Part shown: positions 1-30,016 of the stretch, in pieces
Numbering within the stretch: position 1 is the first letter of the stretch
Layout: each line of letters begins with the position of its first letter
Source of the DNA: an uncultured Candidatus Sumerlaeota bacterium
GTDB lineage: Bacteria > CAYMEV01
DNA: 38,923 nucleotides
Direction of reading: 5' to 3'
NCBI GenBank assembly: GCA_964389675.1
Contig: CAYMEV010000029.1
Span: 1-38,923, forward strand
Program-made: the position numbers and the translations under genes
The notes under the pieces: model-generated
The model's input: the letters and a program-made list of their open reading frames with translations, nothing else
Told to the model about the DNA's origin: nothing
Database searches by the model: none

Positions 1-1871
1 GGCATTATTATGAGCATCAGTTCCATCAGAGTAGAAATCTCCCAGATAAGCTCCTCCATACATAGGATCACCAAGAGTTGCAAGAGGGTTAGAAAACATC
101 CCAATATGAGTATGAGCAATACCATTGTATTCTGCGTTGCTTGACATTACGGTTCTAAAGTTTTGCCCATTCGAAGGAAGAACAAAATTATATGCCTTTG
201 AATACCCGACAAATTCTGTATCATCATACCTTTTATACATTTGAGGCCCAGGAGCAGGAGAATCTTCCTTATGATGGCCTGCACCAAGGATATGTCCTAT
301 CTCATGCGTAAATGTCAAAAGATATTTGTAAGGATTACTCTGTTCAGGATTGTGAATTGCAACTACACTGATACAGTTATTTTCAGGAGAAGTATCATAT
401 ATATCATTTAACCCATTGTTTATGTGGTATAAATCAAAATAAGTGTCGTTATTAGTATCATATTTATCTATATTTTCTATTCTATTGTAGATACTTATCT
501 GGTTTAAGCCACTAGAATGACCGGATATATGGTGTATACTTATTTCATTTTTTTCTTTTTGGGTATCTTTGACAAATAATGCAATTAAATCTGATTTTAT
601 TAGGTTCCTTTCTTTTAATACAGTGTCCATTAATCCATCTTCTGGGTCCCGGAGACATCTATGGTCTTCTCTTAAATCCCTTGTTTCATCATATATTAAT
701 AGTCTGTGCCGTATCAAGTTAATATCTAATTCTATAAAGCTGTCCGAAAAGGAAGTATTTAGATATTCCATTACAAAATCCATGAAATTGTCAATTTCAC
801 CTCCATATATTGTCTCTATGTGACTCAATGCTTTGCTTGTATAGACAATCATCATATCAATGGTGTCATCAGGAATATTTGACTGGTCAGGTATTATGAA
901 GTTAGCAGTTAAGCTAAGATCTTCAGATGGCATTTGGAATTGAAAGTATCTTTGTTTTTTCTTTTCCAATTCATAATTGCCAACCTGAATAGTTCCTGTA
1001 ATCTCCTGATTATCACCTCTTGTCCATTCTTTAAAGATATTATATTCAGTATAATCGATAGATTCAGATCCTCCAGCAGAATCGGGTATTCTCTTTGGTG
1101 TAACTAAAAAATTCATGCTAGTGCCTGGCAAGATGTAATCGTTGTATATTTCTTGGCAAGGCTCTGCTTCAAATTTTTCATTCACAATATTTAACTTATA
1201 TAAGGAGCCCGAGCCAGGTGGGTCAACATCTATTGTTAGATGGTACAGTGTTTCTTTAGAGAATTCTCCTGAATATTCATGATAAGTATTTGGAGTCACT
1301 ATAGAACCATGCGAATTGGATCTATTAAGATCTTCGTACATAATTGTATCAGGTAGGCATATAAAATTATTATCTTCAATAGGATACTGGATTACATATG
1401 TCATGTTGTCAGTTGGTGAAGTATTAAGAAAATATACCTCAGAATCATTATTAATAATCTCAAAGATTCCTATGCTGCTGCTATCATTGGTTATTAGTAT
1501 AAATCTGCTATAGAAGGCATTATCGACTTTGGCTACGATAACTATGGAACCATGCTTAGATTTATGAAATTTTGTTATTGTTGCATGATATACCTTATCT
1601 TCTTCCAGATTAATGATTATCTTATCACCCTTTTTTAAGCTTTGCTCCATTGATAAAATAGGATTTATTTCGATAGCCCTGATTTGAAGAAATGGTGAAT
1701 AAAGAGCCTTAATCTCTTGAGAAATCTGGCCTTCTCTTAGCTTTTCTTCTGTAATAAGATAATGCAAATTGGAATCATCAGCATAAATGGTTAGAGATAG
1801 TAGCAGGGTTAATAGCAGGACTATTGTCTGGATTTGTCTGGATTTGTCTGGATTTGTCTGGATTTGAACAT
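1..1871 (-). CDS. Secreted reprolysin-like (M12B/metzincin) zinc metalloprotease; 3' end runs off the window; currently frameshifted (OFF) by a 10-bp tandem repeat
   Basis: One minus-strand frame is stop-free from 1872 to 1 (read codon by codon). It contains HEIGHILGAGH (about 274-306), a Met-turn-like FRTVMSS, a DTIDMMIVYT strand typical of these catalytic domains, a prodomain Cys (FICLPD) and a hydrophobic IVLLLTLLLSLTIYA segment. The ATG at 1871 with a GAGAGG RBS is in a different frame and stops after 16 codons. Confidence 0.85.
1824..1866. repeat. 10-bp tandem repeat (TTGTCTGGAT)x4.3 in the signal-peptide coding region
   Basis: Four exact units at 1824, 1834, 1844 and 1854, plus a partial TTG. 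Confidence 0.98.
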
Positions 1872-2456: not shown

Positions 2457-5400
2457 TCAATCTTTTATCTTTTTTAGTTCATTAATTTTAGTTTTGTAAA
2501 AAAAGAATGGCTCCTTTTTATACAATTGACGGTAAAATTTGATGGCTTTATTCTTATATTCTTTAGTTTTTTCAAGTTTGAACAGTTCATAATATAAGAC
2601 AGCCTTTTCTTCTGTATTGTCTGTATTATCAAGCATGCCTATAAGTGATCTTACAGCCTGTTCTTTGTTATTTGATGATTTGATCAAAATTTCATGTACC
2701 TTTGTCCTGAAGATATACTCTTTATCATCAACTTGCACTGCGGCTTTCATTGCCTGCCTGTTATACTTGATTGACCCCTTGATGTCCTTATCTGCAAGCA
2801 GGATTACGGATTTCTGAAGCATGCAGTGTGCATAATCGCTTCTCATACAATCAATCTCGGTATAGATCTGGATAGCCCTGTCATAACATTCTACTGCCTT
2901 TGGAAAGTGCCTTGTTTCAAAATAAATATCCCCGGTAAAGGCATATACATGAGCAAGCCTCATCTTATCCGCCATTTCATCAAATACTGGAATGGATGCA
3001 TCGAAATATTTCAAAGCTTCATTATATCTGCCCATGTAAAGATAGGTATTTGCTATATTAAAGAGGGCTATCCCTATGTCTCTTCTATCATCCATTTTTT
3101 CGGCAAGCTGTTTATGTTTATTGAAGTATTCGAGAGATTTCTGGTATTTTCCCATTTCCCTGTAAGCACTGCCGATGTTTACATATGATATTCCGATTCC
3201 CTTTTTGTCTCCAATTTCTGTTGAATTTTTCCTGTATATCTCATAGCACTCCAATGCTTTTTCATATTTTAGCTGTCTTTTGTATATAACCCCCATGTTC
3301 CCGACTGAAATGCCAATGCCTCTTTTATCCCCTATCTCCTGTGAGATTTTTCTGTATTCATTGAAGCCTTCTGCCGCCCTGTCAAACTGCATCTGGTTAA
3401 AGTATATGGTGCCGATGCTGTTATAAATTATTGCTACTGCTCTTTTTTCTCCAATCTCTTTCATTATTTTCATGCTTTTCTTGAAACATTCCAGGGCCTC
3501 ATCCAGTTTGTGCTGGTCAATTAATACATTTCCCCTGTTTATTAAAGTGCTTGCTATACCCTTTTTATTGCCATGCTTTAGATATATCTCACTGCAGGCA
3601 TCTATATACTCCAGTGCTTTAGAATAATTACCAAGGTCATCATAGACATTCGCCAGGCATGATAATGCATTTGCCGTCCTGATCTCATCCCCTATTTCCA
3701 CTGCCAGCTTTCTTGAATTTTCATGGCATGAAATTGCCTTTTTATATTCAGATTTTATATAGCAGGCACGCCCGAGATAACTGTAGGAATCAGATAAAAA
3801 TGATATGTCATTTATAGCTTCTGAAATATCTATGCATTCCCTGTAGAGGCTCATGGCTTTGTCAAGATTACCCATGAGTTCATAAATCTCGCCTGTCTTT
3901 ATCTGTATGGATACCAGTTTTTCTTTTGATCCTGTAATCTTTAACAGCCTTTTGTAGATTTCCAGGGCTTCCCTGTTTCTGTATGTATTTTTTGAATTAT
4001 CTCCCGCCTTTTCAAGATATACTCTGGTTTTTGCTTTGTCTCCTGCCTTTTCATAATGATAGGCCAGATCAATATAATAATCCTTATTAGATTCCGCATC
4101 TGCTTTTACAATCCTCTCAATTACCTGTCCTACTGTATGATGGATAAATCTGAGCCTTTCGCGGAGCTGCATATCATAGGCCGAGTCCCTGAGAAGTGCA
4201 TGCCTGAAGATATATATTATCTCATCCAGGCTGTCCCAGATATTATCCTTCCGGGCTTTTCCCAGGATATCTGAATCCCTCGATACTTGCAGAAGCCTTA
4301 TAGCTTCGATATCAAAGCTTGCCTGCCTTTTATAGTTTTCTAATAGCAGAGAAAGCATTTCAAGTGTGCTGAACAGGATATTCTTATCAAATTCTGCACC
4401 CAATACTGATGCTATTTTAACAAGCTCTTTGATCTCTCTCGAAAGGCGGTCTATTCTTGAAATCAATATCTGATTTATTTTAAGTGGTATATGTTCTGTT
4501 TTTTTTGTAATACTGCAGATATCGGCTTTATGTGAAATATAGCGATTCTCTTTGAGATATAGACATAATTGCTCAATATAGAAGGGATTGTTCTCAGACC
4601 TTATTTTTATGAAACTCAGCATATCGCTGTCAGGTGAGCATCCCAGTATCTCTTTTATAATCTCCCCCAAAAAGCAGTCCGATACCGGTCCGAGCAGGAT
4701 TTCAGCCTGGTTAACATCTGATTCAAAGATTATTTCGGGCTTTGTCCCATCATCATTATACCTGGTTGTAATAATTATTGATATGGGATAATCCTGTATA
4801 TTTCTTGTTAGATGCTTCAGGAATAATCTTGAATCTTCATCAATCCAGTGAATGTCCTCAATCAGGATTAAAACTGGTCTTATAAGGCTTATAGCCTTAA
4901 AGAAAGCCTTCAATGACCAGAGGGTATTTTCATACCGGCCTTTTGCGTCCAGCATTTCATAAAGAGTATCCTTTGTATCAAGCGACAATAAAGCCCTTAT
5001 GAAGGATTCTGAGCGGTCTACTTCTATTAAAACTGCTTCAGACCTTTCATCCCCTATTTCAGAAATCTTATTTCTGAACCTGATGAATCTGTTTTTAAAT
5101 ATGAATTCGCGTTTATCCGCAGGCTGGCTTGACTTCAGTCCAAAAAACACATTAAGAAGGTGAATTAGCGGATTCCAGGCTTTCCTGATGGTGGATTCAC
5201 AAGGCATGTGCATTATTTCAGCATGACTTGAATAATCCTTTGCTGTCTCAAATGCAATCCTGGATTTGCCTATTCCAGCTTCACCATAAATATAAATTAC
5301 ACCAGGAAAGATTGATTTGAGGAAGGGGTCTATAAAGCTTTTAATTTTTTCTATTTCAGTATCTCTTCCATACATATTGCCCTTAAAATGCAATTCCTGA

Positions 5401-6602
5401 ATGTCCTTTTTGTAGGCCAATTCAAAGACATCAGCTTTTTCTGATTTCCCCTTGAAAGAAAAGCTGTTTATGAAATCGAAATTATAATTATATGAAGCAT
5501 TATCATAAACAGCCTTTGATACCCAGATCCTGCCCCATTCAGCGCTTACGCCTATCCTTGCCGAAAGGTTGACTGCATCCCCCAGGACATCATATGCTGA
5601 CCTTATACTGCTCCCGATATAGCCTGAAAAAAGCCGGCCGAATGTTACCCCGGCTTTGATCTTGCTTTTGTACAGGGATTTTATTTCCAGTGCAAAGTCC
5701 ATTGACCTGCTTATATTATTTTCAGGTAAAACAGGGATGCCAAAATTTATGAGGGCTGTACAGCCTTTATCTCCAAAACCGATCCTGCTGAAGTAACCTC
5801 CCCATTTATGAACTGTGTCCATTATCGTGGTTGCAAAATCATTATAGCAATCATGGTCCCAGCCAGTATCATCTATACATAGAAAAATGCTGACTGCATT
5901 CCTGAGTTCATCCAGAGGCTTATTCTCCCGCAATATCTCAGGAATGAATCTCATCAGGATATCATCATTGATATCAACATGCTCATAATTTGGATTAAGG
6001 CTTTTCCTGGCATTAATATGCAGGAGGCTGTAAAAGCCCTTGCTTGTTTCACTGAATTCTGCAGTTTCTTTTATTGGACCGATAATTGAATTATCTACTA
6101 TAATAGACATCGGGTCAGAATGTTTCTCTGCTTCTGCAGATCCATCAATAGCCCTGCCTTTGAAATAATAGGTTTTTTGATGCTTTTTTCCTAAAATCCC
6201 CCATTCTATATTTCCATATGAGATCCCTATTTTAACAGAGATATTAAATTTGCCGTATTTTGTGGTTTTTATATTCTGGGCAGAAACTTCATTTTTGATT
6301 TTTATTGCAGCCCTGCAGGCTTCAACTGGCTTTTCGGGGAAAACTGCAGTAAATGAATCCCCGGCAAATGTTGTAATGAAACCGCCTCTCTGGTAGACAG
6401 CCCATATACATGGTGAGAAGACTTCATTAATAATCCCGGATAGAATTTCTGCCCCCTCCTTGCCATGCTCTGCAAGCCTTTCAGTAATCTTGGTAAACCC
6501 TGAAATATCTGCAAACAGTGATGCAGCATTAAAATTTCCGTGAAAAATGCCATCCTGATATCTCTTAGCAACGTAATGCGGTATAAGCCTTTTCATGTTC
6601 AT
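2457..6602 (-). CDS. Class III adenylate cyclase (tandem catalytic domains)-STAND/AAA ATPase-TPR protein, soluble-AC-like architecture
   Basis: Domain 1 has FADISGFT and FAGDS. Domain 2 has GDKG and GDAVNLSAR. Walker A GEAGIGKS, Walker B LILIEDIHW, YIFRHALLRDSAY, then a long TPR array. The start may be 6596. Confidence 0.92.
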   Translation of the reverse strand: MNMKRLIPHYVAKRYQDGIFHGNFNAASLFADISGFTKITERLAEHGKEGAEILSGIINEVFSPCIWAVYQRGGFITTFAGDSFTAVFPEKPVEACRAAIKIKNEVSAQNIKTTKYGKFNISVKIGISYGNIEWGILGKKHQKTYYFKGRAIDGSAEAEKHSDPMSIIVDNSIIGPIKETAEFSETSKGFYSLLHINARKSLNPNYEHVDINDDILMRFIPEILRENKPLDELRNAVSIFLCIDDTGWDHDCYNDFATTIMDTVHKWGGYFSRIGFGDKGCTALINFGIPVLPENNISRSMDFALEIKSLYKSKIKAGVTFGRLFSGYIGSSIRSAYDVLGDAVNLSARIGVSAEWGRIWVSKAVYDNASYNYNFDFINSFSFKGKSEKADVFELAYKKDIQELHFKGNMYGRDTEIEKIKSFIDPFLKSIFPGVIYIYGEAGIGKSRIAFETAKDYSSHAEIMHMPCESTIRKAWNPLIHLLNVFFGLKSSQPADKREFIFKNRFIRFRNKISEIGDERSEAVLIEVDRSESFIRALLSLDTKDTLYEMLDAKGRYENTLWSLKAFFKAISLIRPVLILIEDIHWIDEDSRLFLKHLTRNIQDYPISIIITTRYNDDGTKPEIIFESDVNQAEILLGPVSDCFLGEIIKEILGCSPDSDMLSFIKIRSENNPFYIEQLCLYLKENRYISHKADICSITKKTEHIPLKINQILISRIDRLSREIKELVKIASVLGAEFDKNILFSTLEMLSLLLENYKRQASFDIEAIRLLQVSRDSDILGKARKDNIWDSLDEIIYIFRHALLRDSAYDMQLRERLRFIHHTVGQVIERIVKADAESNKDYYIDLAYHYEKAGDKAKTRVYLEKAGDNSKNTYRNREALEIYKRLLKITGSKEKLVSIQIKTGEIYELMGNLDKAMSLYRECIDISEAINDISFLSDSYSYLGRACYIKSEYKKAISCHENSRKLAVEIGDEIRTANALSCLANVYDDLGNYSKALEYIDACSEIYLKHGNKKGIASTLINRGNVLIDQHKLDEALECFKKSMKIMKEIGEKRAVAIIYNSIGTIYFNQMQFDRAAEGFNEYRKISQEIGDKRGIGISVGNMGVIYKRQLKYEKALECYEIYRKNSTEIGDKKGIGISYVNIGSAYREMGKYQKSLEYFNKHKQLAEKMDDRRDIGIALFNIANTYLYMGRYNEALKYFDASIPVFDEMADKMRLAHVYAFTGDIYFETRHFPKAVECYDRAIQIYTEIDCMRSDYAHCMLQKSVILLADKDIKGSIKYNRQAMKAAVQVDDKEYIFRTKVHEILIKSSNNKEQAVRSLIGMLDNTDNTEEKAVLYYELFKLEKTKEYKNKAIKFYRQLYKKEPFFFYKTKINELKKIKD

Positions 6603-16561: not shown

Positions 16562-17608
16562 TTACTTTACCTCCCTGGTAATATGCAATATATTATCAGA
16601 AACCTTTGAAGAAAGAAATGCCCATTTATAAATCTGGCACATTATATCAGGATATTCTGACTGAAAATGCCTGAGAATTATAAGATTAATATTTTTTTTA
16701 TCATCGTTATTTAAATTAATGTCAGTAGTATAATTTTTTACATAAAGATCATATAATCTTTCAAAATGAGCAGTTCTGGAATTAACAATCAATGATGCAG
16801 GATCATTATACCAAAGATAAAACTGATTATTCTCCAGATATGTTTCTTCAATATATATTAGCATATCGACAGTATCCATGTCCAGTCTCTTCATTTGCTT
16901 TTTGCATGGGCTGGAATCTTGTTCAATCTCTATTGGCATTATGAAGGAGCCAACTGTAATATACCTTTTTTGTCTGGCTTCTCTAAGTATTCTCGTTACC
17001 AGGAACCCATCATAAATTTTTATCCCGTACTGAGGCATTCCTTCTCTGGCATTGTCAAAAATTTCTTCAAATGTGGAATAGTCTGTTTCTATTACTTTAT
17101 CAAGGCTGCTTTTGAGTATTTTTACATTAACATTAGCATCAGATTTATCTCTATAAGCATTGGCTCCGGTTTTAAGAAAATCATCTGAAGATAACCATTG
17201 TTGCCCATTATAAGAAATTATTAAATCATAGGGATTAACCTTATCATCTATTTCAGAGAATATAGGAATATAATTATCCGTAAATAAATCACTCTCAAAG
17301 TTATTAAAATTAATTATCAGCCCTGCTGGAATAGCCTCAACCTGAATGGATTCAAAATAAACTTTGGCATCCTCTTTGAAAAAATGATTAATATTTTCAG
17401 CAATCTTTGCCAGATCTATATCCAGATAATCATATACATCAGAATCAGTTTCCATATGAAGAATCTTCTTAAGCTCCAATCTACAATCAGCAAATGTAGC
17501 AGCAGCAGAATTCTTTGCTGTATCCTTATTTTCAGCTGAAATTAGTGTGCTTTCCTGAAGAGACAAGCTCATTAAACAAAGAAATATTGTTATTTTAATT
17601 ACTTTCAT
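16562..17608 (-). CDS. Exported hypothetical protein (operon copy 1, gene B)
   Basis: The ORF track starts at 17638, but the ATG at 17608 gives a signal peptide (MKVIKITIFLCLMSLSL) and its first codons recur at 25052-25069. Paralogue of 23373-24431. Confidence 0.8.
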   Translation of the reverse strand: MKVIKITIFLCLMSLSLQESTLISAENKDTAKNSAAATFADCRLELKKILHMETDSDVYDYLDIDLAKIAENINHFFKEDAKVYFESIQVEAIPAGLIINFNNFESDLFTDNYIPIFSEIDDKVNPYDLIISYNGQQWLSSDDFLKTGANAYRDKSDANVNVKILKSSLDKVIETDYSTFEEIFDNAREGMPQYGIKIYDGFLVTRILREARQKRYITVGSFIMPIEIEQDSSPCKKQMKRLDMDTVDMLIYIEETYLENNQFYLWYNDPASLIVNSRTAHFERLYDLYVKNYTTDINLNNDDKKNINLIILRHFQSEYPDIMCQIYKWAFLSSKVSDNILHITREVK

Positions 17609-17627
17609 TTCTTTAGGGTTCCAATTA

Positions 17628-18098
17628 TTATCTATCATCTTGTTGATAGCAACAGGGGCCTATAACCCGAGGATAGTATAAAACACACATAATACTAACA
17701 ATAGGTCCGGTTGGCTGTAGTATTTCTAGATGATAATCACAGCTTTCACAAGAACTGCCGGGGTCTGCAGGAACACACACTTGGCCCCATTGACAAACTC
17801 CGGGATCATTTGAATGTATAGAAACCCTGGTATAAAGGCAATTACCGACAACATGAAAGTATGGGCAAGAATCAATAGTAGGACAAGTGCCATCATAGAT
17901 CCTACCCTTTATCCGATTCTCTGAATGCTCTTCATAGATTGATGAAGAATAGATATCATCGGTATTATCTCTAGATTCTTCAATTATGTCTATGTCATCA
18001 ATACCAGAGTCTTTTGTTTCCTTTGAATAATTATCTGCTAAAAATAATAGTAGTATTAGCATTGTAGTTAAGCAGCATATTCGAATTAACTTTATCAT
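17628..18098 (-). CDS. Small exported cysteine-rich protein (operon copy 1, gene A)
   Basis: Signal peptide, acidic linker and a C-terminal domain with 10 Cys including CESC and a terminal CC; AAGGAG RBS. Confidence 0.85.
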   Translation of the reverse strand: MIKLIRICCLTTMLILLLFLADNYSKETKDSGIDDIDIIEESRDNTDDIYSSSIYEEHSENRIKGRIYDGTCPTIDSCPYFHVVGNCLYTRVSIHSNDPGVCQWGQVCVPADPGSSCESCDYHLEILQPTGPIVSIMCVLYYPRVIGPCCYQQDDR

Positions 18099-18137: not shown

Positions 18138-18168
18138 ACTATACCCCCCCCCCACGATATAATGTCAA
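18138..18168 (-). promoter_or_regulatory. Sigma70-type promoter with a G10 tract in the spacer (copy 1)
   Basis: Minus strand reads TTGACA-TTATATCGT-GGGGGGGGGG-TATAGT; spacer 19 bp; about 40 bp upstream of the gene A ATG. Confidence 0.88.
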
Positions 18169-20976: not shown

Positions 20977-21445
20977 TTAGGGAATAAAGGCTATTATTTT
21001 CATATCAGAGCCGCAGACCGGACATTTCAGCGGATCTATCTCATATACTTTATATATCAGCATTGCCCATGACCTTCGGGCTGACCTTATATCCGGGGGA
21101 TCATTAATTATTTTTATGTCCCTCTTTTTCCTTTTGCCTCTTGAAGCATTGGAATAGTACCTATAATATCTAATAAGGTATTCATAGGGGTCGGGAATAT
21201 GCAGATATACCCTGTGGAGGAATTCAATAGCATCCAGTATCTCAAAATTCCTGTTTTTGCCAGGATGCATCTTTGATCTGTATATGATATTATGGGATTT
21301 CTCTGAGAAGGTTATCTTCTCTGAGGAAAAAGAAGCATGCACTATGTACTCTGCAAGCCTGGATAGGGCATTTGGATTATCCTCTGATATCAATATTGCA
21401 TTATGGACTGAGAAGCCGTCTTTTTGTATATGGCCAACCTCTCAT
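20977..21445 (-). mobile_element. Truncated IS91/ISCR-like rolling-circle transposase (C-terminal half)
   Basis: GFSVHN, LSRLAEYIVHASFS, LDAIEFLHRVYLHIP, IRYYRYYSNASRGKR and SWAMLIYKVYEIDPLKCPVCGSDMKIIAFI. The N-terminal Zn-binding and HUH region is missing. Confidence 0.85.
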
Positions 21446-21496: not shown

Positions 21497-23383
21497 TTAA
21501 AGGATAATCTCTAATATCCTTTCAACATTTTTTTCATCTGGTTCAAAACCTAATTTAATCTGATGTAAAAGTATTCCTTCTTTATATATAGCTACTATAT
21601 AGGATTTATAAGACACAAGTCTTTCTATATAATATGTCAAAACACCATTTTTATCCGAAACAAGGTCTAGATATGTATTAAATCCAAGACATTCTATTTT
21701 TACTTCAATACTTTCCTTATCTGAATCAGTTATAAGATTAAGTATGATTTTATTTCCATGGTTTATTTCCAGATCCCCTAAGTCTGTGTCTTTCTTTATG
21801 CTGATATCAGGATAATAGGTCAAGGTGTACCTATCATGATATATATAAAGATCATAATTACCTTGATAGATTCCAGCATTTTTATTTATACTGAAAAAAC
21901 CTTTATCATCTGTTACAGAATTGCCGCGCGATAATTTACTTAGATCTTTTAAATATTCTGAGTAAGAATCAGGGTATTCTGCAGGTGCAATCAGGCAGCC
22001 AGTATACAGACCATAATTGGACCGGAGGCTAATATAAACAGCAGCACCTGACACTGGATCATTATCTTTATCTTTGATATATCCACAGATATAAGCACCT
22101 TCCCTGAAATAGATATCACCCAATTTCAGGATCATGGGAGCTTTTCTGTATCTTTCTATCATCTTGTCATCTAAATATTTTCTGTAAATCAATTTAGCTG
22201 CAGTTTCATCCTGTTCACAATATAGAAATAAATCTATAAAAAGCTCTTCTTCACTCATAAAACCCGGATTATAATATGGATATCTTGAAATAATATCTCC
22301 AATGTAAGTTATAGGTATATGAAAATTACCGATATTATCTGTATAAATTTCATCAATATTGTCCGATGTACTACCTGCGCATACTAATTCATCATTGGTA
22401 GTATTTATATAGGAATAGCTCATATAGGCTCTAACCTGAACCGGGAAATTTATATATTCATTAGAAACCTTTCCAATAATAGCCATTTCTTCATCAAAAA
22501 ACAACTCATAAGGCTCCCGGGATACAGATACATCAAATAATAGCGTATCATTAGTCAGCTTATTTCTGCCCGCGATACACAATTGTCTTGAGGCATATTC
22601 TTCATCTATGATAAATAGAAACCTATTGTGAATATAAGGTTTGATCGGCTCTACCAATATCAATTCACCTTCAGAATCATAATAAAAGATCCCCATTAGC
22701 CCCCCCCCACACTTAATGCCCGAATTTTTGTACCAAGTGGAACCATATATGCTGTTTTTTCTAATAAGGTAGACAGGATTATCAAATATTACGATTCCTT
22801 CCTCATCAAGCATAAGTTCTTCTTTAAAATCCTTATCTGATGAGAAAAATATCTCCTTTGTATATATATCATCACCTGTTATTGTCGCCTTATACTGATA
22901 TAACGGGTTTACAATGCTGAGCTTAACTTCAGAATATTCAGCTTGTGTTATCTGATATAGATCAATATAATCAGACATCTCGGGTATAAATACTGAAACA
23001 TTTATTTTTGCATTATTAATTCCTTCACATACCCAGTCTAGTGTGTGGAAGCTTATTGGGTCACCGGAAAAATTGATAGTTAGGTCCCCTGCTGTTTTAT
23101 CAATATTTTGATAATATACTGCCTGACCCTGCACTGCAATAAGTATGCCTCCCTCAAAAGCTAGCAGATCATAGCAGGGCAATTTACCCTCTTTGTAATC
23201 CATGGGATTTAAGATTTCAGACCATATAATCTCCCATTTATTGTCCTGACTGTTAAAACAATAAACATATAGATGAAGGTCAGCCGACGAATCTGAAAAT
23301 GATCTATCAAGGTAAAATATGGCTTTTAATACAGGTGAAAATAAAAATAGAACAACAATAAATAATATTAGCTTACTTTTCAT
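21497..23383 (-). CDS. Exported protein with carboxypeptidase-regulatory-like beta-sandwich domains (operon copy 2, gene C)
   Basis: Signal peptide; GYIKDKDNDPVSGAAV ... VTDDKGFFSI. Shares LHLY, IA.QGQ.VYY.NI, KNSIYGS, NRFLF and GDIYF blocks with 14686-16560. Confidence 0.8.
   Translation of the reverse strand: MKSKLILFIVVLFLFSPVLKAIFYLDRSFSDSSADLHLYVYCFNSQDNKWEIIWSEILNPMDYKEGKLPCYDLLAFEGGILIAVQGQAVYYQNIDKTAGDLTINFSGDPISFHTLDWVCEGINNAKINVSVFIPEMSDYIDLYQITQAEYSEVKLSIVNPLYQYKATITGDDIYTKEIFFSSDKDFKEELMLDEEGIVIFDNPVYLIRKNSIYGSTWYKNSGIKCGGGLMGIFYYDSEGELILVEPIKPYIHNRFLFIIDEEYASRQLCIAGRNKLTNDTLLFDVSVSREPYELFFDEEMAIIGKVSNEYINFPVQVRAYMSYSYINTTNDELVCAGSTSDNIDEIYTDNIGNFHIPITYIGDIISRYPYYNPGFMSEEELFIDLFLYCEQDETAAKLIYRKYLDDKMIERYRKAPMILKLGDIYFREGAYICGYIKDKDNDPVSGAAVYISLRSNYGLYTGCLIAPAEYPDSYSEYLKDLSKLSRGNSVTDDKGFFSINKNAGIYQGNYDLYIYHDRYTLTYYPDISIKKDTDLGDLEINHGNKIILNLITDSDKESIEVKIECLGFNTYLDLVSDKNGVLTYYIERLVSYKSYIVAIYKEGILLHQIKLGFEPDEKNVERILEIIL
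22700..22708 (-). repeat. G9 homopolymer inside gene C of copy 2 (Gly-Gly-Gly)
   Basis: C9 on the plus strand; reads TGT GGG GGG GGG CTA on the minus strand; currently in frame. Confidence 0.9.
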
Positions 23384-24431
23384 TTTCTATAATTTTCTTT
23401 TTTATCAATAATATACTTTCAGACAGAAGCCTGTCACGCAAATATGACCAATGCATAATCTTGCAGAAAATTTCTGCATATTCCTGTTCATCATGCGCAA
23501 ATATGTTATTATGGCACTCGAAATGATCAATTGCTTTTATATTATTATTTTTAATATAATTTATCATGTATTCATATTGAACTGAATCATAATATGCAGC
23601 TTTAGCCATAATATTTAGCAATGTGGGCTCAACTACATGAAAATATAACTCATCATTTTGCTTATATGTATCCTCTATAAAAGATTTCAATTCAGCTGAT
23701 TCAGAATTGAGATGAATAATGCTGCTGCATGTTTTGCATTCTGCATCCTTATTAATCTTTATTGGTCTGAAGAAGGTTCCAGGTTCGAGGAATTTGTTTT
23801 CTTCAATCTCCTTTATTTTCGATGTTATGAGGAATCCTCCCTGAATATGTATTCCATAATACAGATCCTTATCAATATTAGAACCACCTGTTTTCATATC
23901 ATCAGAGACAGTGAATTCTGTTTCTTCTATTTTATCAAGGTTGCTTTTCAGAATCTTTACCGGAACAACACTATCTTGATCCTGTATATATGCTTCAACT
24001 CCAGTTTTTGCAAAATCATCAGCTGATATCCATGATTTTCCGTTGTATTTTAACACCATATCAAAGGGATTTACATTTTTAAATCTTTCCCAGACCACTG
24101 GATCCATAGTATTAAAAGCCACCTCACTATGCCGTGGTATGTATCCTTCGAGAAGGCCTACAGGTACACACTCCAACTGCAATGACTCTATAATTATCTT
24201 GTCATATTCATTTAGAAGGCTTGTGATTTTATCAGATATTTCCTTTTTGCTTAAATTCAAATAGTCATAGGCATTAAACTTGCCATTCTTTATATCATTC
24301 ATAACAGGGCTAAATTTATTTTTAAATTTTTCTATAATTATTTCGCTTTCAGAGGGGCATATAACCTCCCCGACTATAAAAAAGGTATATACAATAGATA
24401 TGAGACAACCTATTAAAATTCGCTTTTTCAT
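23373..24431 (-). CDS. Exported hypothetical protein (operon copy 2, gene B)
   Basis: Hydrophobic N-terminus. Shares YDYL, ES.Q.E..P.GL, VNP.D....YNG..W.S.DDF.KTG..AY, VKILKS.LDK and YGI.I..GFL.T with copy 1 gene B. Confidence 0.8.
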   Translation of the reverse strand: MKKRILIGCLISIVYTFFIVGEVICPSESEIIIEKFKNKFSPVMNDIKNGKFNAYDYLNLSKKEISDKITSLLNEYDKIIIESLQLECVPVGLLEGYIPRHSEVAFNTMDPVVWERFKNVNPFDMVLKYNGKSWISADDFAKTGVEAYIQDQDSVVPVKILKSNLDKIEETEFTVSDDMKTGGSNIDKDLYYGIHIQGGFLITSKIKEIEENKFLEPGTFFRPIKINKDAECKTCSSIIHLNSESAELKSFIEDTYKQNDELYFHVVEPTLLNIMAKAAYYDSVQYEYMINYIKNNNIKAIDHFECHNNIFAHDEQEYAEIFCKIMHWSYLRDRLLSESILLIKKKIIENEK

Positions 24432-24587: not shown

Positions 24588-25031
24588 TCAATGTGCATCT
24601 CCATTCCTGCAGCATCTGTATATTCTAGGGTATATTTTGCAATGCTTATTATAACTTCCCACATGCATAGCATATATACAACTCTCACATCCATCTCCTA
24701 TAGTTTCTTCATCACATCTGCGATAATTAGAACTTTCTGGTACGTTATTGCACATTCCAGTTGGAGTTGGCTCTATATATTCAGTTCTGGCATATATACA
24801 TAATGGTTCCACTGTAATATGCATTTTTCTACATTGGTATAAAGCACAATACATATATCCATCCCATTCCCCAGGGAGTGTTTTCTCAATATCAGAGACC
24901 TTTAATTTAACACAAATTGTCCTTTCGTTTGTATCATAATTTGGGTTCTCTCCATAGATGGAAATAACAGCAAATCCTGCAAATAAGATAACCAGAGCTA
25001 GACAACAAAACATTTTTGCAATAGAATTCAT
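24588..25031 (-). CDS. Small exported cysteine-rich protein (operon copy 2, gene A2)
   Basis: Signal peptide; same 10-Cys framework (CIYAR, GMC, CESCIY, YPRI..CC) as 17628-18098; AAGGAGG RBS. Confidence 0.85.
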   Translation of the reverse strand: MNSIAKMFCCLALVILFAGFAVISIYGENPNYDTNERTICVKLKVSDIEKTLPGEWDGYMYCALYQCRKMHITVEPLCIYARTEYIEPTPTGMCNNVPESSNYRRCDEETIGDGCESCIYAMHVGSYNKHCKIYPRIYRCCRNGDAH

Positions 25032-25074: not shown

Positions 25075-25554
25075 TTAAGCTGATAATTTTAAGTTATAAT
25101 TTGTTTTATAGCAACAGGGTCCTATAAACTGAGAATACTACAAAATACATATGAGAATAATATGCCCAAATGACTGAAGTATTCCAGATGATAATAACAG
25201 CTTTCACAAGAACTGACTGGATCTCCAGGGACACAGTTTTCGCCGCATTTGCAGACTCCGGGATTATGTGAATTTATAGAACTCCTTGCATATTGGAAAT
25301 CACAAACAACATGAGAGTATGGACAATAATCAAGAGGACAAAGTGCCCTCATAGATTCTACCCTTTATCTGAGTCTCTGAATGCTCTTCATAGATTAATG
25401 AAGAATATATATCATCGATATCATGCTTAGCTTCTTCAATTGTCTCTATGTCATTAATAACAGGTTCTCTTGTTTCATTTGAATAATTATCTGTTAAAAA
25501 TAATAGCTGTATCAGCATTGCAGTTAAGCAGCATGCTCGACTTAACTTTATAAT
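25075..25554 (-). pseudogene. Pseudogenised close homologue of copy-1 Cys-rich gene A
   Basis: Start is ATT instead of ATG (25554). One frameshift lies near 25340 (ORFs 25330-25518 and 25122-25352 are the two halves) and a second lies before IGPCCY. Collinear with 17628-18098. Confidence 0.9.
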
Positions 25555-25593: not shown

Positions 25594-25624
25594 ACTATAC
25601 CCCCCCCCCACGATATAATGTCAA
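25594..25624 (-). promoter_or_regulatory. Sigma70-type promoter with a G10 tract in the spacer (copy 2)
   Basis: Same TTGACA-TTATATCGT-G10-TATAGT as 18138-18168, inside a ~70-bp identical core. Confidence 0.88.
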
Positions 25625-26335: not shown

Positions 26336-27649
26336 ATGATTAAATATTTCCTTTTAATACTATTACTGGTTATAACACCTCTTGCAATACTTCTGCAGGT
26401 ATATTTCAGCGGCAACTGGTATTCATTTTTCCACAGCTATTCCCTCGGTATTGTCTTCGGCCTTTTGGCATGGGCGCTATTTCTGTTCACGCTTGTTTTG
26501 TCTTCAAGGGTCAGGCTTCTGGAAAAGATATTCGGTCAGGACAGGCTCATCGTTTTGCACAGATATACTGGAGCCGGTGCTGTTATATCAGGTATACTGC
26601 ATGTGTCATTCAAGCTGTACTTTTCATCAGATGTATCGCCTCACCTGATAAGCGGTGCTATAGCGGGATCTATTATTTTTCCAGTTTCTGCCATGTCTCT
26701 TCTAATCCTATCCCGATCGGTCTTTGACCGTTTCAGGGCAGTAAAAATGGTAAAGAGCTATGCACGCAGGTCAATACGCTATTCCACCATGAAGTTCCTT
26801 CATAATGGTATTGCATTAGCCCTTGCCATTATACTTATACATATTCTAATAGCACCTTCTACAGCGGAGACCAGCCTCCGTTCTGTTATTATAATGCTGA
26901 CAGGCATACCTGTCCTGGGGCTATGGATTTACCATAAGCTGATAAGGCCCTATTTTTATATTAAAGGGAGAATAAAGGAGATACATCATTTCACTGACAG
27001 GCTTTTTTCAGTAAAGATGGAATTTCTTAAGAGTGTTTTAAGTATCATGCCCGGTCAGTTCTGCTATTTCAGGTTCCCAGTCCCTGGTGTCCCAGGGGAG
27101 GAACACCCTCTCACCATATCAGGGGTATTTGACCACCAGACTGCAGAAGTACTTATAAAGAGGGAAGGTTTGTGGACAAATTCTGTATCGGGCCTGGAAC
27201 CTGGCTTGCCTGTGTCCATCAGCAGGCCTTATGGAAAGTTTGATCTCAGCTCCCAGTGCCCTATGCTCTGGGTTGCCGGAGGAGTCGGAATTACGCCGTT
27301 TCTATCCAGGATACGCTCTCTGCGGAACGAAAAGCTGAAACTGAATGTCAGAACTGTCCTGATATGGAGTGCGAGGACTGGCAGAGAAATGCCCTATAGA
27401 GATGAAATAGAGGATTATGAAAACATGGACGGCAATTTTACATTTATTCCCATGCTTACCCGTGAAAAGACTGCTTCACCAAGAATAGATTCTGATTTTA
27501 TTAAAAGAAAGATAAATGAATTATCTCATAAAAATGCTTCCCTATGGTATTGTGGTCCTCTTTTGCTGCGCAGGCATGTTTTCAGGGGTGCTAAGGAAGC
27601 AGGGATAAAAGCAGGGAATATGCACTGGGAAGAGTTCTCCCTGGCCTGA
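26336..27649 (+). CDS. Ferric reductase-like transmembrane oxidoreductase with FAD/NAD-binding domains
   Basis: Six TM helices with paired His (LHRYTG/LHVSF, LHNG/IHIL), plus PGQF, EEHPLTIS, VAGGVGITPF, WYCGP and HWEEF. Confidence 0.92.
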   Translation: MIKYFLLILLLVITPLAILLQVYFSGNWYSFFHSYSLGIVFGLLAWALFLFTLVLSSRVRLLEKIFGQDRLIVLHRYTGAGAVISGILHVSFKLYFSSDVSPHLISGAIAGSIIFPVSAMSLLILSRSVFDRFRAVKMVKSYARRSIRYSTMKFLHNGIALALAIILIHILIAPSTAETSLRSVIIMLTGIPVLGLWIYHKLIRPYFYIKGRIKEIHHFTDRLFSVKMEFLKSVLSIMPGQFCYFRFPVPGVPGEEHPLTISGVFDHQTAEVLIKREGLWTNSVSGLEPGLPVSISRPYGKFDLSSQCPMLWVAGGVGITPFLSRIRSLRNEKLKLNVRTVLIWSARTGREMPYRDEIEDYENMDGNFTFIPMLTREKTASPRIDSDFIKRKINELSHKNASLWYCGPLLLRRHVFRGAKEAGIKAGNMHWEEFSLA

Positions 27650-27689
27650 AAATTATATTTTATTCAAAGCTTTATAGATAATCCTCAAT

Positions 27690-27720
27690 AAAAAAAGGCT
27701 GCACAATAATGTGCAGCCTT
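27690..27720 (-). terminator. Rho-independent terminator of the C25 protease gene, possibly bidirectional
   Basis: 11-bp stem AAGGCTGCACA/TGTGCAGCCTT with a 4-nt loop, running into a T tract on the minus strand. Confidence 0.85.
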
Positions 27721-27745
27721 AATATCCGATTAATAGAATTAATGT

Positions 27746-30016
27746 TTATGATGGCGGGAAAACATAGAAGGAAACACCCTCATAGTCCCACTGAGGCAGT
27801 TCCATTACATCATCCCTTTCATTTTCATTGATTGTATAGAAATGGCCCCCTCTGACATTGTTGAAGAATCTGTAAACAGCCACACTGGAAGTGGCCTGTG
27901 ACGGCATAACATAAAAGGATATGCCCTCGTAGTTCCATTGAGGCAGCTGCATTATTGCATCTCTTTCAGATGTATTAATGGTATACAGATGGATGCCTGT
28001 TCTTGTATTGAAGAAACGGTATGCTGCAGTGCTTCCCTGGGCTTGAGTATTATAGACCCTGAATGCCACACCCTCATAGCTCCACTGGGGCAGGTCCATT
28101 ACATCATCCCTCTCAGATTCACTGATAGTATACAGGTGGCCTCCGCGGTTTGTGTTGAAGAAGCGGTAAACAGGCACTGTTTCTTCCTGAGGTTCGCTTA
28201 CTTCCTTATGTGCGACAATAGACGGATCACCAAGATAGTTCAGTGAAAAATGAACCCATCTCATGGAATAATCTGAGTTTGCAGATCCTGCAAGATGGAT
28301 CTTTGACTGGGTAAAACCAGCTCCTATTAGATGCTGGTAGGTATTCTCAAGGGTATATCTGAATATCCAGTCATTATAAGTGAATGAAGGCCCGTGCCCT
28401 GAGAGGGAAATTTCACCAAGGCCGTACCTTGATGCTCCGATATATACAACACTGCCCCCGTTTGGATTTCTTGTGAATGCCTCGCCCAGGCATGGGTCGG
28501 CTGCACCCGCAACTTCAGGGTCAAATGCATTTGTTATGCAGGCAATGGTAATTACAATACCCGGAATATTATTGAGTGCAAGTGCGCTGTTTGAAGAAAA
28601 GTCAGCACCTGTCTCCATTGCCCAGACAGTTACATTGCCGTGGGTTGCCATATGAAAGAAGTTCATACCCTGATTCAGGATACTTGACAGTGTGGAGACT
28701 GAAACAGTGGCATCTGTATCATAGAGTGTGTGTTTGTTATGGTCAGCCCAGTATGGAGCTATGTAATTATTGTACATGGCTTCGCTCTTGGCCTTGGCAT
28801 CCCCGCTGTAGTAAAAGAGCTGAACGCCTGAAAGCAGGAGATTCTTTGGAAAGCTCTGGTTGCTTCCTGCATTGATGTAAGTATTTACCTTGTTCTTGTA
28901 GTCAAGGACCTGCTGAGCGGTCCTTACTGCAAGCCTTCCGATTATTACATCCGGTGATATATCTGCATTGTCGCCACTTATTTCTCCCACTTTGCTGTCA
29001 CCGTCTGCATTCCAGTTGAATGCACCGTCAAAACAGCTGTAGAACAGGTCTCCTGGAATAGTGTTGTCAGTTTCCTTATATGGGAGATATCCGTAGACAT
29101 TCTGGTCAGGTACACTGTATGTACTGCTGGTTCCACCATCACCGATAAGGAAGACATAGCTGATATTATTGTTCTGGACATACTGATAGATGCAGTTCTT
29201 GATCTTCAGCTGATCTGTTGCACCTTCATATGTGCTTAAAATATTGGAGACAGTCTGTATTGTTGATGTAATGCCTGCTGATTGCCTGAAATTTGCATAA
29301 GTCTGTGCAGCAGACTGTAATGTGTCTGTTGTTATTATAAGCATATCATAATCTGCTGATTTTGGTGCAACATCTACTTTGTCAGGGTAGAAAAGGCTGA
29401 AATAGGAAGGGTTAACAACAGTTCCAAGGATAATATTATTAAAAACTGCATTTGGCCTGTAGTCGATCCTTTCGTTGTCCTTACTGTATTCGCATTTTAC
29501 AGAAAAACTGACATTCTGGTACATGAAAAGCTCATTTGTTTCAGTATTATATTCAAACGGGTAGTAGGAAAAATATAGAATATCAAATCCCCTTGTACTG
29601 CCTACAGAAAGATTAACAAGTCTTTTATCCGGATATACAGATCCGCTTTTATATGTCCTGCCAGGAGGAATGAAGTCATTCCTCGGCTTTGAGATTATCT
29701 CATATCCCTGAAACGGGTAGGGTGTTACTTCCCCGAGAGATACCCTGCTGCTTTCCTTGAAAATGATGTCAGTTATCTCTGCCTGCCTTGGAACAAGGAC
29801 TCTGACCATATAAGCAGGTATATCAGGGTCTCCTTCCTTAGCCAGGGAATGTGCATCCGGATCCTGGTATGAAATCCTGTAATATCCTTCAAAAGGTTCA
29901 ATAACAACCTTGTCAATATCATATTCAAGGTCGAATGTTATCACCTCTCCAAAGCATGCTATGCTCAGGAAGGCAAAAATTACGGCAAAAAAAATTGGTT
30001 TCATAATTATTTTCAT
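27746..30016 (-). CDS. Gingipain-like C25 cysteine peptidase with propeptide and three C-terminal DUF5648-type repeats
   Basis: Signal peptide, GDPDIP propeptide, DMLIIT, YVFLIGD, DVIIGRL, catalytic THG and IAC, NYLGDP. Ends with 3x (V/A)YRFFN...G.H.YTI...ERD..M.LPQW.YEG. Confidence 0.9.
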   Translation of the reverse strand: MKIIMKPIFFAVIFAFLSIACFGEVITFDLEYDIDKVVIEPFEGYYRISYQDPDAHSLAKEGDPDIPAYMVRVLVPRQAEITDIIFKESSRVSLGEVTPYPFQGYEIISKPRNDFIPPGRTYKSGSVYPDKRLVNLSVGSTRGFDILYFSYYPFEYNTETNELFMYQNVSFSVKCEYSKDNERIDYRPNAVFNNIILGTVVNPSYFSLFYPDKVDVAPKSADYDMLIITTDTLQSAAQTYANFRQSAGITSTIQTVSNILSTYEGATDQLKIKNCIYQYVQNNNISYVFLIGDGGTSSTYSVPDQNVYGYLPYKETDNTIPGDLFYSCFDGAFNWNADGDSKVGEISGDNADISPDVIIGRLAVRTAQQVLDYKNKVNTYINAGSNQSFPKNLLLSGVQLFYYSGDAKAKSEAMYNNYIAPYWADHNKHTLYDTDATVSVSTLSSILNQGMNFFHMATHGNVTVWAMETGADFSSNSALALNNIPGIVITIACITNAFDPEVAGAADPCLGEAFTRNPNGGSVVYIGASRYGLGEISLSGHGPSFTYNDWIFRYTLENTYQHLIGAGFTQSKIHLAGSANSDYSMRWVHFSLNYLGDPSIVAHKEVSEPQEETVPVYRFFNTNRGGHLYTISESERDDVMDLPQWSYEGVAFRVYNTQAQGSTAAYRFFNTRTGIHLYTINTSERDAIMQLPQWNYEGISFYVMPSQATSSVAVYRFFNNVRGGHFYTINENERDDVMELPQWDYEGVSFYVFPPS

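Follow-up and report, generated by a model that had tools for sequence, protein, structure and literature searches.

We studied a family of small, predicted exported proteins (family A), each with a ten-cysteine C-terminal domain, that is encoded on the contig CAYMEV010000029.1 of an uncultured Candidatus Sumerlaeota bacterium (assembly GCA_964389675.1; 3.57 Mb in 58 contigs, 93.8% complete). The whole contig of 38,923 nucleotides (nt) is referred to as the window. Two intact members, A1 and A2, lie within it, each at the head of a unit of three genes that also encodes a protein B with a PDZ fold and a protein C of about 620 amino acids (aa). A plausible, still tentative reading is that these A-B-C units are modules of the envelope or surface that are phase-variable and diverge fast, and that the cysteine-braced domain of A would act as a rigid loop scaffold. 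The descriptive parts of this picture are much firmer than the functional reading.

That is, slippage within nucleotide repeats would switch alternative A-B-C units on and off, and each unit would build an envelope or surface assembly. Within such an assembly, the A domain would form a rigid frame that presents its variable loops to a partner outside (e.g., another cell, a phage or the surface of a particle), while the PDZ domain of B would hold the C-terminal tail of A or C. That the three proteins assemble at all is suggested by their gene order and the overlap of the genes.

A cysteine scaffold with variable loops

In the translation of A1, the domain cysteines are residues 72, 78, 87, 102, 108, 117, 120, 138, 149 and 150, i.e., the gaps between them are 5-8-14-5-8-2-17-10-0. 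For A2, we find residues 62, 67, 78, 94, 106, 115, 118, 131, 140 and 141 with the gaps 4-10-15-11-8-2-12-8-0. Both spacings exactly match those given in the original prediction, which was made from the sequence and its reading frames. Among the shared motifs it had named, C.Y.R (CLYTR / CIYAR), G.C (GVC / GMC) and CESC.Y are common to both proteins, while YPR(V/I)..CC holds for A2 (YPR-I-x2-CC) but not for A1, where three rather than two residues precede the final cysteines (YPRV-IGP-CC). The two gap vectors lie an L1 distance of 17 apart. Of 200,000 random placements, 0.036% reach this value, as do 0.13% of the permutations of A2's own gaps, such that the likeness of the spacings is unlikely by chance (P of about 4e-4 to 1e-3).

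Six intact members of the family are available. Beside A1 and A2, the source genome encodes A22 (225 aa, contig C22); a same-genus genome (G001) contributes two cassettes with A73 (245 aa) and A154 (147 aa, counted from its likely start), and the metagenome contig L020 encodes A20. The latter is the orthologue of A2 (57% identity) and keeps all 11 of its cysteines, i.e., including the eleventh, Cys40, which is located in the linker of A2. In addition, there is one broken copy, psiA3, within the window.

The predicted pattern of a conserved cysteine scaffold with variable loops is borne out by the alignment of the six members. The homologues have kept their cysteines, with all ten complete in five of the six, and 7/10 cysteine columns are invariant throughout. 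In the 66 remaining domain columns, the majority fraction averages 0.45, with no more than four columns being invariant. The sixth member, A154, lacks positions II and VII and has gained one new cysteine in a loop; a joint loss of the two is what one expects if they are partners.

Every member starts with a hydrophobic, signal-like segment, which we take as a Sec-type signal peptide. Judged by eye, the -3/-1 cleavage sites look good in four of six members (VSG, VNG, SNA, SNS); our own crude predictor missed A1. The segment is followed by a linker of 31-135 residues that is acidic in all cases (net charge -2 to -8) and by the cysteine domain of 86-90 residues (net charge -6 to +2). In A1, the linker holds 14 Asp and Glu among 47 residues (net charge -8), which agrees with the layout of signal, acidic spacer and cysteine domain that had been noted for this protein. 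A short conserved stretch stands immediately before the domain in the A1-like members. Among 483 proteins predicted to be exported by our crude signal-peptide filter, the two highest cysteine densities are those of A2 and A22.

Two further features were considered and discarded. Both A1 and A2 have a CC within the signal peptide, which is not conserved in the members from G001 and is thus no feature of the family. We also rejected A as a lipoprotein, since LLAC is present in A154 and A20 and absent from A2 and A1.

Upstream of the genes, a Shine-Dalgarno sequence is found for both A1 (AAGGAG, at a distance of 8 nt) and A2 (AAGGAGG). A near-identical copy of A1 (95-99% alike) occurs in contigs of a sequencing run from another study.

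The A-B-C unit

Behind the A gene lie B (about 350 aa) and then C (about 620 aa), both on its strand, and this order is constant wherever a locus extends far enough. It is complete for both copies in the window as well as for the loci L018 and L007, while the A22 unit is split over two contig ends. The source genome holds three units, which share 28-46% identity. Genes are tightly packed, with an 11-nt overlap between the end of A1 and the start of B1 and with C1 directly adjoining B1.

For B1, the AlphaFold2 model (mean predicted local distance difference test score, pLDDT, 69.9; predicted template modelling score, pTM, 0.72) indicates a PDZ fold. The top Foldseek matches are the PDZ tandem of GRASP55/65 (E 0.01, prob 0.96) and that of RseP, and further matches are PDZ domains of GRASP, RseP, Nas2 and SdrC-like proteins (prob 0.84-0.98). 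VIA-align reports Z 8.0 for GRASP55 and 7.8 for the RseP PDZ, followed by MucP, SpoIVB and DegS; here, nearly all of the top 30 rows are PDZ domains (Z 5.2-8.0) that cover residues of about 102-232 of the model. Clusters of the ESM Atlas lend weak support (PDZ clusters scoring 0.85-0.86). On the sequence level the signal is marginal, as Pfam PDZ_2 is found in one of six B members with E 0.043, i.e., below threshold. We therefore assign B to the PDZ proteins at the level of the modelled fold. A catalytic or protease domain was detected in B by neither Pfam, Foldseek nor VIA-align.

All six members of the C family, predicted exported proteins of about 620 residues, show a CarboxypepD_reg match (best E 2.6e-5) that stays below the Pfam cut-off and hints at a beta-sandwich. 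The hydrophobic C-terminus of C reads FIL, IIL or YIN. The genome encodes Omp85/BamA (192 bits), and the organism is therefore taken to be diderm.

With 31-34%, the GC content of the cassettes is lower than that of the genome (40%). In G001, homologues of the genes flanking the cassettes show a nucleotide identity of about 70% and are scattered over many contigs. Directly downstream of the second cassette, we observe a fragment of a Y2-type (IS91-like) transposase (20977-21393, minus strand), which is multi-copy in G001 at 90-93% nucleotide identity.

Repeats at promoters and gene starts

A candidate phase-variable promoter precedes A1-B1-C1, and a second copy of it precedes psiA3 (coordinates in Table 1). 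In both copies, the -35 and -10 hexamers are separated by 19 nt, ten of which form a G run. This spacer length explains why a standard promoter scan, which covers spacers of 16-18 nt, missed the promoter of A1. The broken gene psiA3 has ATT where A1 has its ATG start codon; its nucleotide identity to A1 is 90.7% in the upstream region, 86.2% for signal and linker and 78.0% for the cysteine domain. A2 directly follows psiA3, and the second promoter copy now probably drives A2-B2-C2 through the broken gene.

Runs of this kind exceed expectation: the genome contains nine G/C tracts of at least 10 nt, where our own arithmetic based on base composition yields about 0.7 as expectation. The G9 run of C2 is in frame, encodes Gly-Gly-Gly and is absent at the same place in C1; it could act as a frameshift switch.

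For A22, the repeat is found at the gene start, which carries four perfect units of the 8-nt repeat ATGCAAAC. The two ATG codons nearest to the ribosome-binding site are out of frame and run into stops after 31-33 codons, and a single added ATGCAAAC unit would bring both into frame. A degenerate version of this repeat is present in A73 of G001. Across the genome, perfect repeats that comprise at least four copies of a 4-11-nt unit number only seven. Four of the seven stand directly after an ATG, namely that of A22 and three with 10-nt units, which are found at gene starts of a similar kind. In summary, repeats occupy positions typical of contingency loci in these units, i.e., the G10 run within the spacer (twice), the fourfold 8-nt repeat of A22 and the in-frame G9 of C2.

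One of the 10-nt repeats is within the window (1824-1866, minus strand; perfect, 4.3 copies). It follows an ATG with a ribosome-binding site, meets a TAG stop codon in the frame as it now stands and is located just upstream of a large open reading frame (ORF; 1-1767) with a weak match to the M12/Reprolysin_5 metallopeptidases (25.1 bits, cut-off 27). Similar 10-nt repeats after very similar starts are found at C19:393 and C19:77547 of the same genome. Together, these genes look like a second family of phase-variable exported genes.

Rate of divergence

As a housekeeping reference, we compared RuvB between the source genome and G001, which is 91% identical with a nonsynonymous divergence (dN) of 0.061, while synonymous sites are saturated (proportion of synonymous differences, pS, 0.76). 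The A domains are 46-60% identical with dN values of 0.32 (A2/A20) and 0.59 (A1/A73), i.e., 5-10 times that of RuvB. Across loci, the identity is 40-67% for B and 49% for C. The A-B-C units have diverged far more than housekeeping genes.

The pairwise ratio of nonsynonymous to synonymous divergence (dN/dS) is 0.35-0.46 for A2/A20, 0.27 for B2/B20 and 0.77 for A1 vs. psiA3. The suggestion that the loop variation reflects diversifying selection is thus not demonstrated; the number of sequences is too low for site-wise selection tests.

Distribution and homology searches

The A family is new and very narrowly distributed, i.e., it was found in the source genome, one same-genus genome and one metagenome contig. 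When A1 was compared with 5.8 billion proteins in a word-indexed search, A1 itself was the only match among six candidates. A hidden Markov model (HMM) of the A domain yields six matches with E <= 0.001 among 1.84 billion representative proteins, of which four are our own members and one is an 83-aa fragment close to A154. The last, a repetitive protein of 442 aa, we take as spurious since it matches in seven short stretches that cover profile positions 10-42 only. For B and C, the 5.8 billion proteins contain three and four matches, respectively, including the window's own.

Searches of curated families gave a similar picture. In Pfam, A1 matches only Adeno_E1A (16.9 bits, cut-off 27.7) and A2 nothing; NCBIfam and PADLOC have no match for the A proteins, and a single PHROGs match (E 1.5e-4) concerns mainly the acidic linker (A1 residues 39-81). 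A phage or defence origin was therefore rejected, given nothing meaningful in PHROGs or PADLOC. Profile searches against PDB sequences found no match at E <= 10 for A, none for B and one for C (E 0.31), and the ESM Atlas returned no usable match for A. With the model of the A domain, the best Foldseek hit has E 0.72 and the best VIA-align hit Z 3.2 over 48,161 chains, where the model itself is weak. A known fold or family thus did not turn up in Pfam, NCBIfam, PDB sequences, the 1.84 billion proteins or the fold searches, with the reservation that a structure model this weak may still conceal a known fold of A. Two limited word searches of the literature found no description of such a bacterial family.

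On the genome level, protein B was searched in 40 other genomes and matches solely in G001 (2/41 genomes when counting the source). All other relatives from the genome search are labelled only 'same domain', such that the source lineage appears very isolated within the reference set. A locus search of genome contigs with B1 alone found nothing; with the alignment of B, it found only the two contigs of G001 among genome contigs and three contigs among metagenomes, two of which are identical to those of G001, while the new one is L020.

Points that weigh against the surface-module reading

Several observations speak against a phase-variable surface module. First, the subgroups of A are hard to join: the BLASTP alignment of A1 and A2 spans 13 residues (E 0.054), an HMM of the A1-like members misses A2, A20 and A154, the reverse search fails as well, and hhalign between the three subgroups yields P values of 0.051, 0.004 and 0.14. 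That is, homology of A1-like and A2-like proteins is not significant by sequence alone, and we base their common origin on the collinear cysteine pattern and on the identical position upstream of homologous B and C genes.

Second, no length variation was seen among the assembled contigs of the sequencing runs, which end at the G10 tract, with none from the other run spanning it; the duplicated promoter alone explains why contigs break there. Among the RNA runs listed, none contains the A-B-C locus. Third, the loop variation may reflect relaxed constraint, given pairwise dN/dS values below 1. Fourth, there is no recognisable surface anchor or outer-membrane secretion signal in A, B or C, and the three proteins may therefore never leave the periplasm. 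Fifth, the A proteins show no conservation at their very C-termini, which weakens the proposed binding of an A tail by the PDZ domain of B. Finally, the structure model of the A domain is of low confidence (mean pLDDT 60.9, pTM 0.49).

Disulfide or metal bracing and alternative functions

With regard to the chemistry of the ten cysteines, their conservation and the joint loss in A154 argue for the five-disulfide domain put forward in the original prediction, whereas the genome shows neither a Dsb set nor an even-cysteine bias. DsbA (PF01323), Thioredoxin_4 (PF13462) and DsbB (PF02600) were not found in the 93.8% complete genome, and VKOR reaches only 17.4 bits there, which is below the cut-off. 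Thioredoxin_2 matches are generic, as this family matches in all 14 control genomes. A bias towards even cysteine numbers is a published indicator of disulfide formation (PMC2823432, in the part of the source available to us). Here, the number is even for 194 of the 428 cysteine-bearing proteins among the 483 predicted to be exported (0.453), which equals the fraction for cytoplasmic proteins. The cysteines may be braced by disulfides or by metal, and metal binding, already named as an alternative in the original prediction, is a serious one.

If A is primarily a metal-binding protein, its ten cysteines would ligate Zn, Fe, Ni, Cu or metal-sulfide clusters and serve buffering, capture or redox purposes in the periplasm or outside the cell within a sulfidic sediment. 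Both the missing disulfide enzymes and the even-cysteine fraction are consistent with this, as are the CxxC and CC motifs in the domain of A1 and A2, the odd total of cysteines after the signal peptide in three of six members, and the habitat, given that the sequencing run with the best coverage of the locus is labelled marine sediment. However, the cysteine count rests on a signal-peptide predictor crude enough to miss A1, and A154 does without two cysteines, one of them from the CxxC, while it keeps the other eight and an intact cassette. Furthermore, there is no conserved histidine or acidic ligand, no metal transporter or regulator is conserved beside the cassettes in both genomes, and phase-variable control, paralogue turnover and fast divergence would be unusual for metal homeostasis. 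As an account of the function of A, we consider metal binding rather unlikely. Within the window, we also observe a rubrerythrin gene; marine sediment and rubrerythrin fit an anaerobe.

Alternatively, A could be the prepropeptide of a secreted toxin or antimicrobial, with the linker as propiece, the cysteine domain as released disulfide-knotted effector, and B and C in charge of processing, immunity or delivery. The order of signal, acidic linker and cysteine domain would suit such a product, and so would the short conserved stretch before the domain of A1-like members, the multi-copy, fast-diverging nature of the family, and the A1/psiA3 pair, where the 5' part is better conserved (86-91% nucleotide identity) than the cysteine domain (78%). 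Still, domains of 86-90 residues with a charge of -6 to +2 are not small cationic peptides, and since they are acidic to neutral, the idea of a defensin-type propiece that neutralises their charge does not carry over. Scans with Pfam, NCBIfam and PADLOC revealed no protease, transporter or known immunity family in B or C; A matches no toxin family, PDB sequence or fold, where the fold model is weak; and the Dsb machinery is not found. We therefore regard this explanation as quite unlikely.

Very unlikely is an envelope cross-linker, i.e., that A stiffens the outer layers via intermolecular thiol links, as is thought for the cysteine-rich OmcA/OmcB pair in Chlamydia: a small cysteine-rich protein is indeed encoded beside a larger exported one, the odd cysteine totals of A2, A20 and A154 imply at least one unpaired thiol in each, and A2 and A20 share Cys40 of the linker, but the translations of C1 and C2 are not cysteine-rich, no lipobox is common to all members, oxidising machinery was not found, and on/off switching and several divergent copies would be a poor match for a structural part of the envelope.

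Comparison with known systems

The phase-variable surface module we prefer is closest in its control to the contingency loci of Neisseria. There, Opa carries a 5-nt repeat in the region coding for the signal peptide, while PorA and Opc have a homopolymer in the promoter spacer. The units studied here likewise place a homopolymer between the -35 and -10 hexamers (A1) and, where the coding sequence of an exported protein begins (A22), a repeat with a unit length not divisible by three, and in both cases multi-copy, divergent paralogues are involved. In contrast to the Neisseria loci, the A proteins are unrelated, the unit comprises three genes including one for a PDZ protein, the repeats are known from sequence alone, and the organism is no host-adapted pathogen but an uncultured bacterium of marine sediment.

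Concerning the cysteine domain, the resemblance to eukaryotic toxins and defensins put forward in the original prediction did not hold up beyond the general design. Defensin-like peptides have about 30-50 residues, are cationic when mature and contain three or four disulfides, which disagrees with the length, the ten cysteines and the charge of the A domain, and no matching fold was found with the weak model. What A has in common with defensins, knottins, conotoxin-like peptides and the mussel MgCRP-I peptides is the succession of a signal, an intervening region and a cysteine-dominated domain with variable loops. In the available part of the respective report (PMC4558851), MgCRP-I peptides are described with a pre-pro region that is conserved and a mature part that varies, to which the better conserved 5' part of the A1/psiA3 pair corresponds. 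Unlike these eukaryotic peptides, A is bacterial, operon-encoded, longer and acidic to neutral, its disulfides are only putative, neither fold nor sequence matches them, and its host is without recognisable Dsb enzymes.

Protein B resembles the PDZ domains of RseP/MucP, DegS/DegP, CtpA/CtpB, SpoIVB and GRASP55/65, onto which its modelled PDZ region superposes with Z 5-8 (root-mean-square deviation 2.2-4.6 Å over 59-105 residues; Foldseek prob up to 0.96-0.98). It differs from periplasmic PDZ proteins in that no protease or catalytic domain accompanies the fold and in its marginal sequence-level signal.

Coordinates and further features

Table 1. Features of the two A-B-C units in the window.
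Feature	Position (nt)	Strand	Description
A1	17628..18098	minus	156-aa predicted exported protein with ten-cysteine C-terminal domain (ORF and translation)
A1 signal peptide	18036-18098		about residues 1-21
A1 acidic linker	17895-18035		about residues 22-68
A1 ten-cysteine domain	17628-17894		residues 69-156
B1	16562..17638	minus	358-aa protein, predicted exported or anchored; PDZ at about residues 102-232, flanked by helical regions (structure model)
C1	14686..16560	minus	624 aa with signal peptide; sub-threshold CarboxypepD_reg-like match at about residues 483-527
Candidate phase-variable promoter of A1-B1-C1	18138..18168	minus	TTGACA 18163-18168, G10 18144-18153, TATAGT 18138-18143
A2	24588..25031	minus	147-aa predicted exported protein; ten-cysteine domain and linker Cys40
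B2	23373..24431	minus	352-aa paralogue of B1 (tblastn E 3.2e-49, 32% identity)
C2	21497..23383	minus	628-aa paralogue of C1 (34% identity); in-frame G9 at 22700-22708
psiA3	~25102..25551	minus	broken A1-like copy directly upstream of A2; frameshifts and 5 stops within the match
Second promoter copy, upstream of psiA3	25594..25624	minus	TTGACA 25619-25624, G10 25600-25609, TATAGT 25594-25599

Beside the units listed in Table 1, the minus strand of the window encodes a gingipain-like Peptidase_C25 protein with a C-terminal DUF5648 (27746-30016). In G001, at least 28 different ORFs show a match to its last approximately 145 residues, which suggests a shared C-terminal domain for sorting or anchoring. 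A further minus-strand gene (2457-6602) encodes a protein of 1381 aa that combines an adenylate/guanylate cyclase with an AAA_16 (STAND-type) ATPase and many TPR repeats.

Elsewhere in the genome, contig C19 encodes two more predicted exported proteins that end in dense cysteine clusters with CxC motifs (27095-27820 and 59995-60657). Their cysteine pattern is unrelated to that of the A family. Upstream of the former gene, a 23-nt (GTGA)n repeat is located between promoter-like hexamers.

Implications

The practical reach of the findings is limited, given a family known from one metagenome contig and two genomes. With neither DsbA, DsbB nor an above-threshold VKOR found, the chemistry of the ten cysteines, i.e., disulfide or metal, becomes a sharp and directly testable question. 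A further-reaching view, which we hold doubtful, is that the design of a fixed cysteine scaffold with variable loops, which eukaryotic venom and immune peptides also show, evolved independently in this deep-branching sediment bacterium as the variable head of a stochastically switched three-gene surface module (cysteine domain, PDZ adaptor and beta-sandwich protein), combined with novel chemistry. Here, given that no disulfide-forming enzymes are recognisable, the A domain would represent a new metal-clustered fold or the product of a novel oxidative-folding route.

If the phase-variable module is real, it would add a new bacterial cysteine-braced mini-domain without detectable relatives. Repeat-driven phase variation is best known from host-adapted pathogens; the A-B-C units would then mean that free-living, deeply branching sediment bacteria use it for exported protein families as well.

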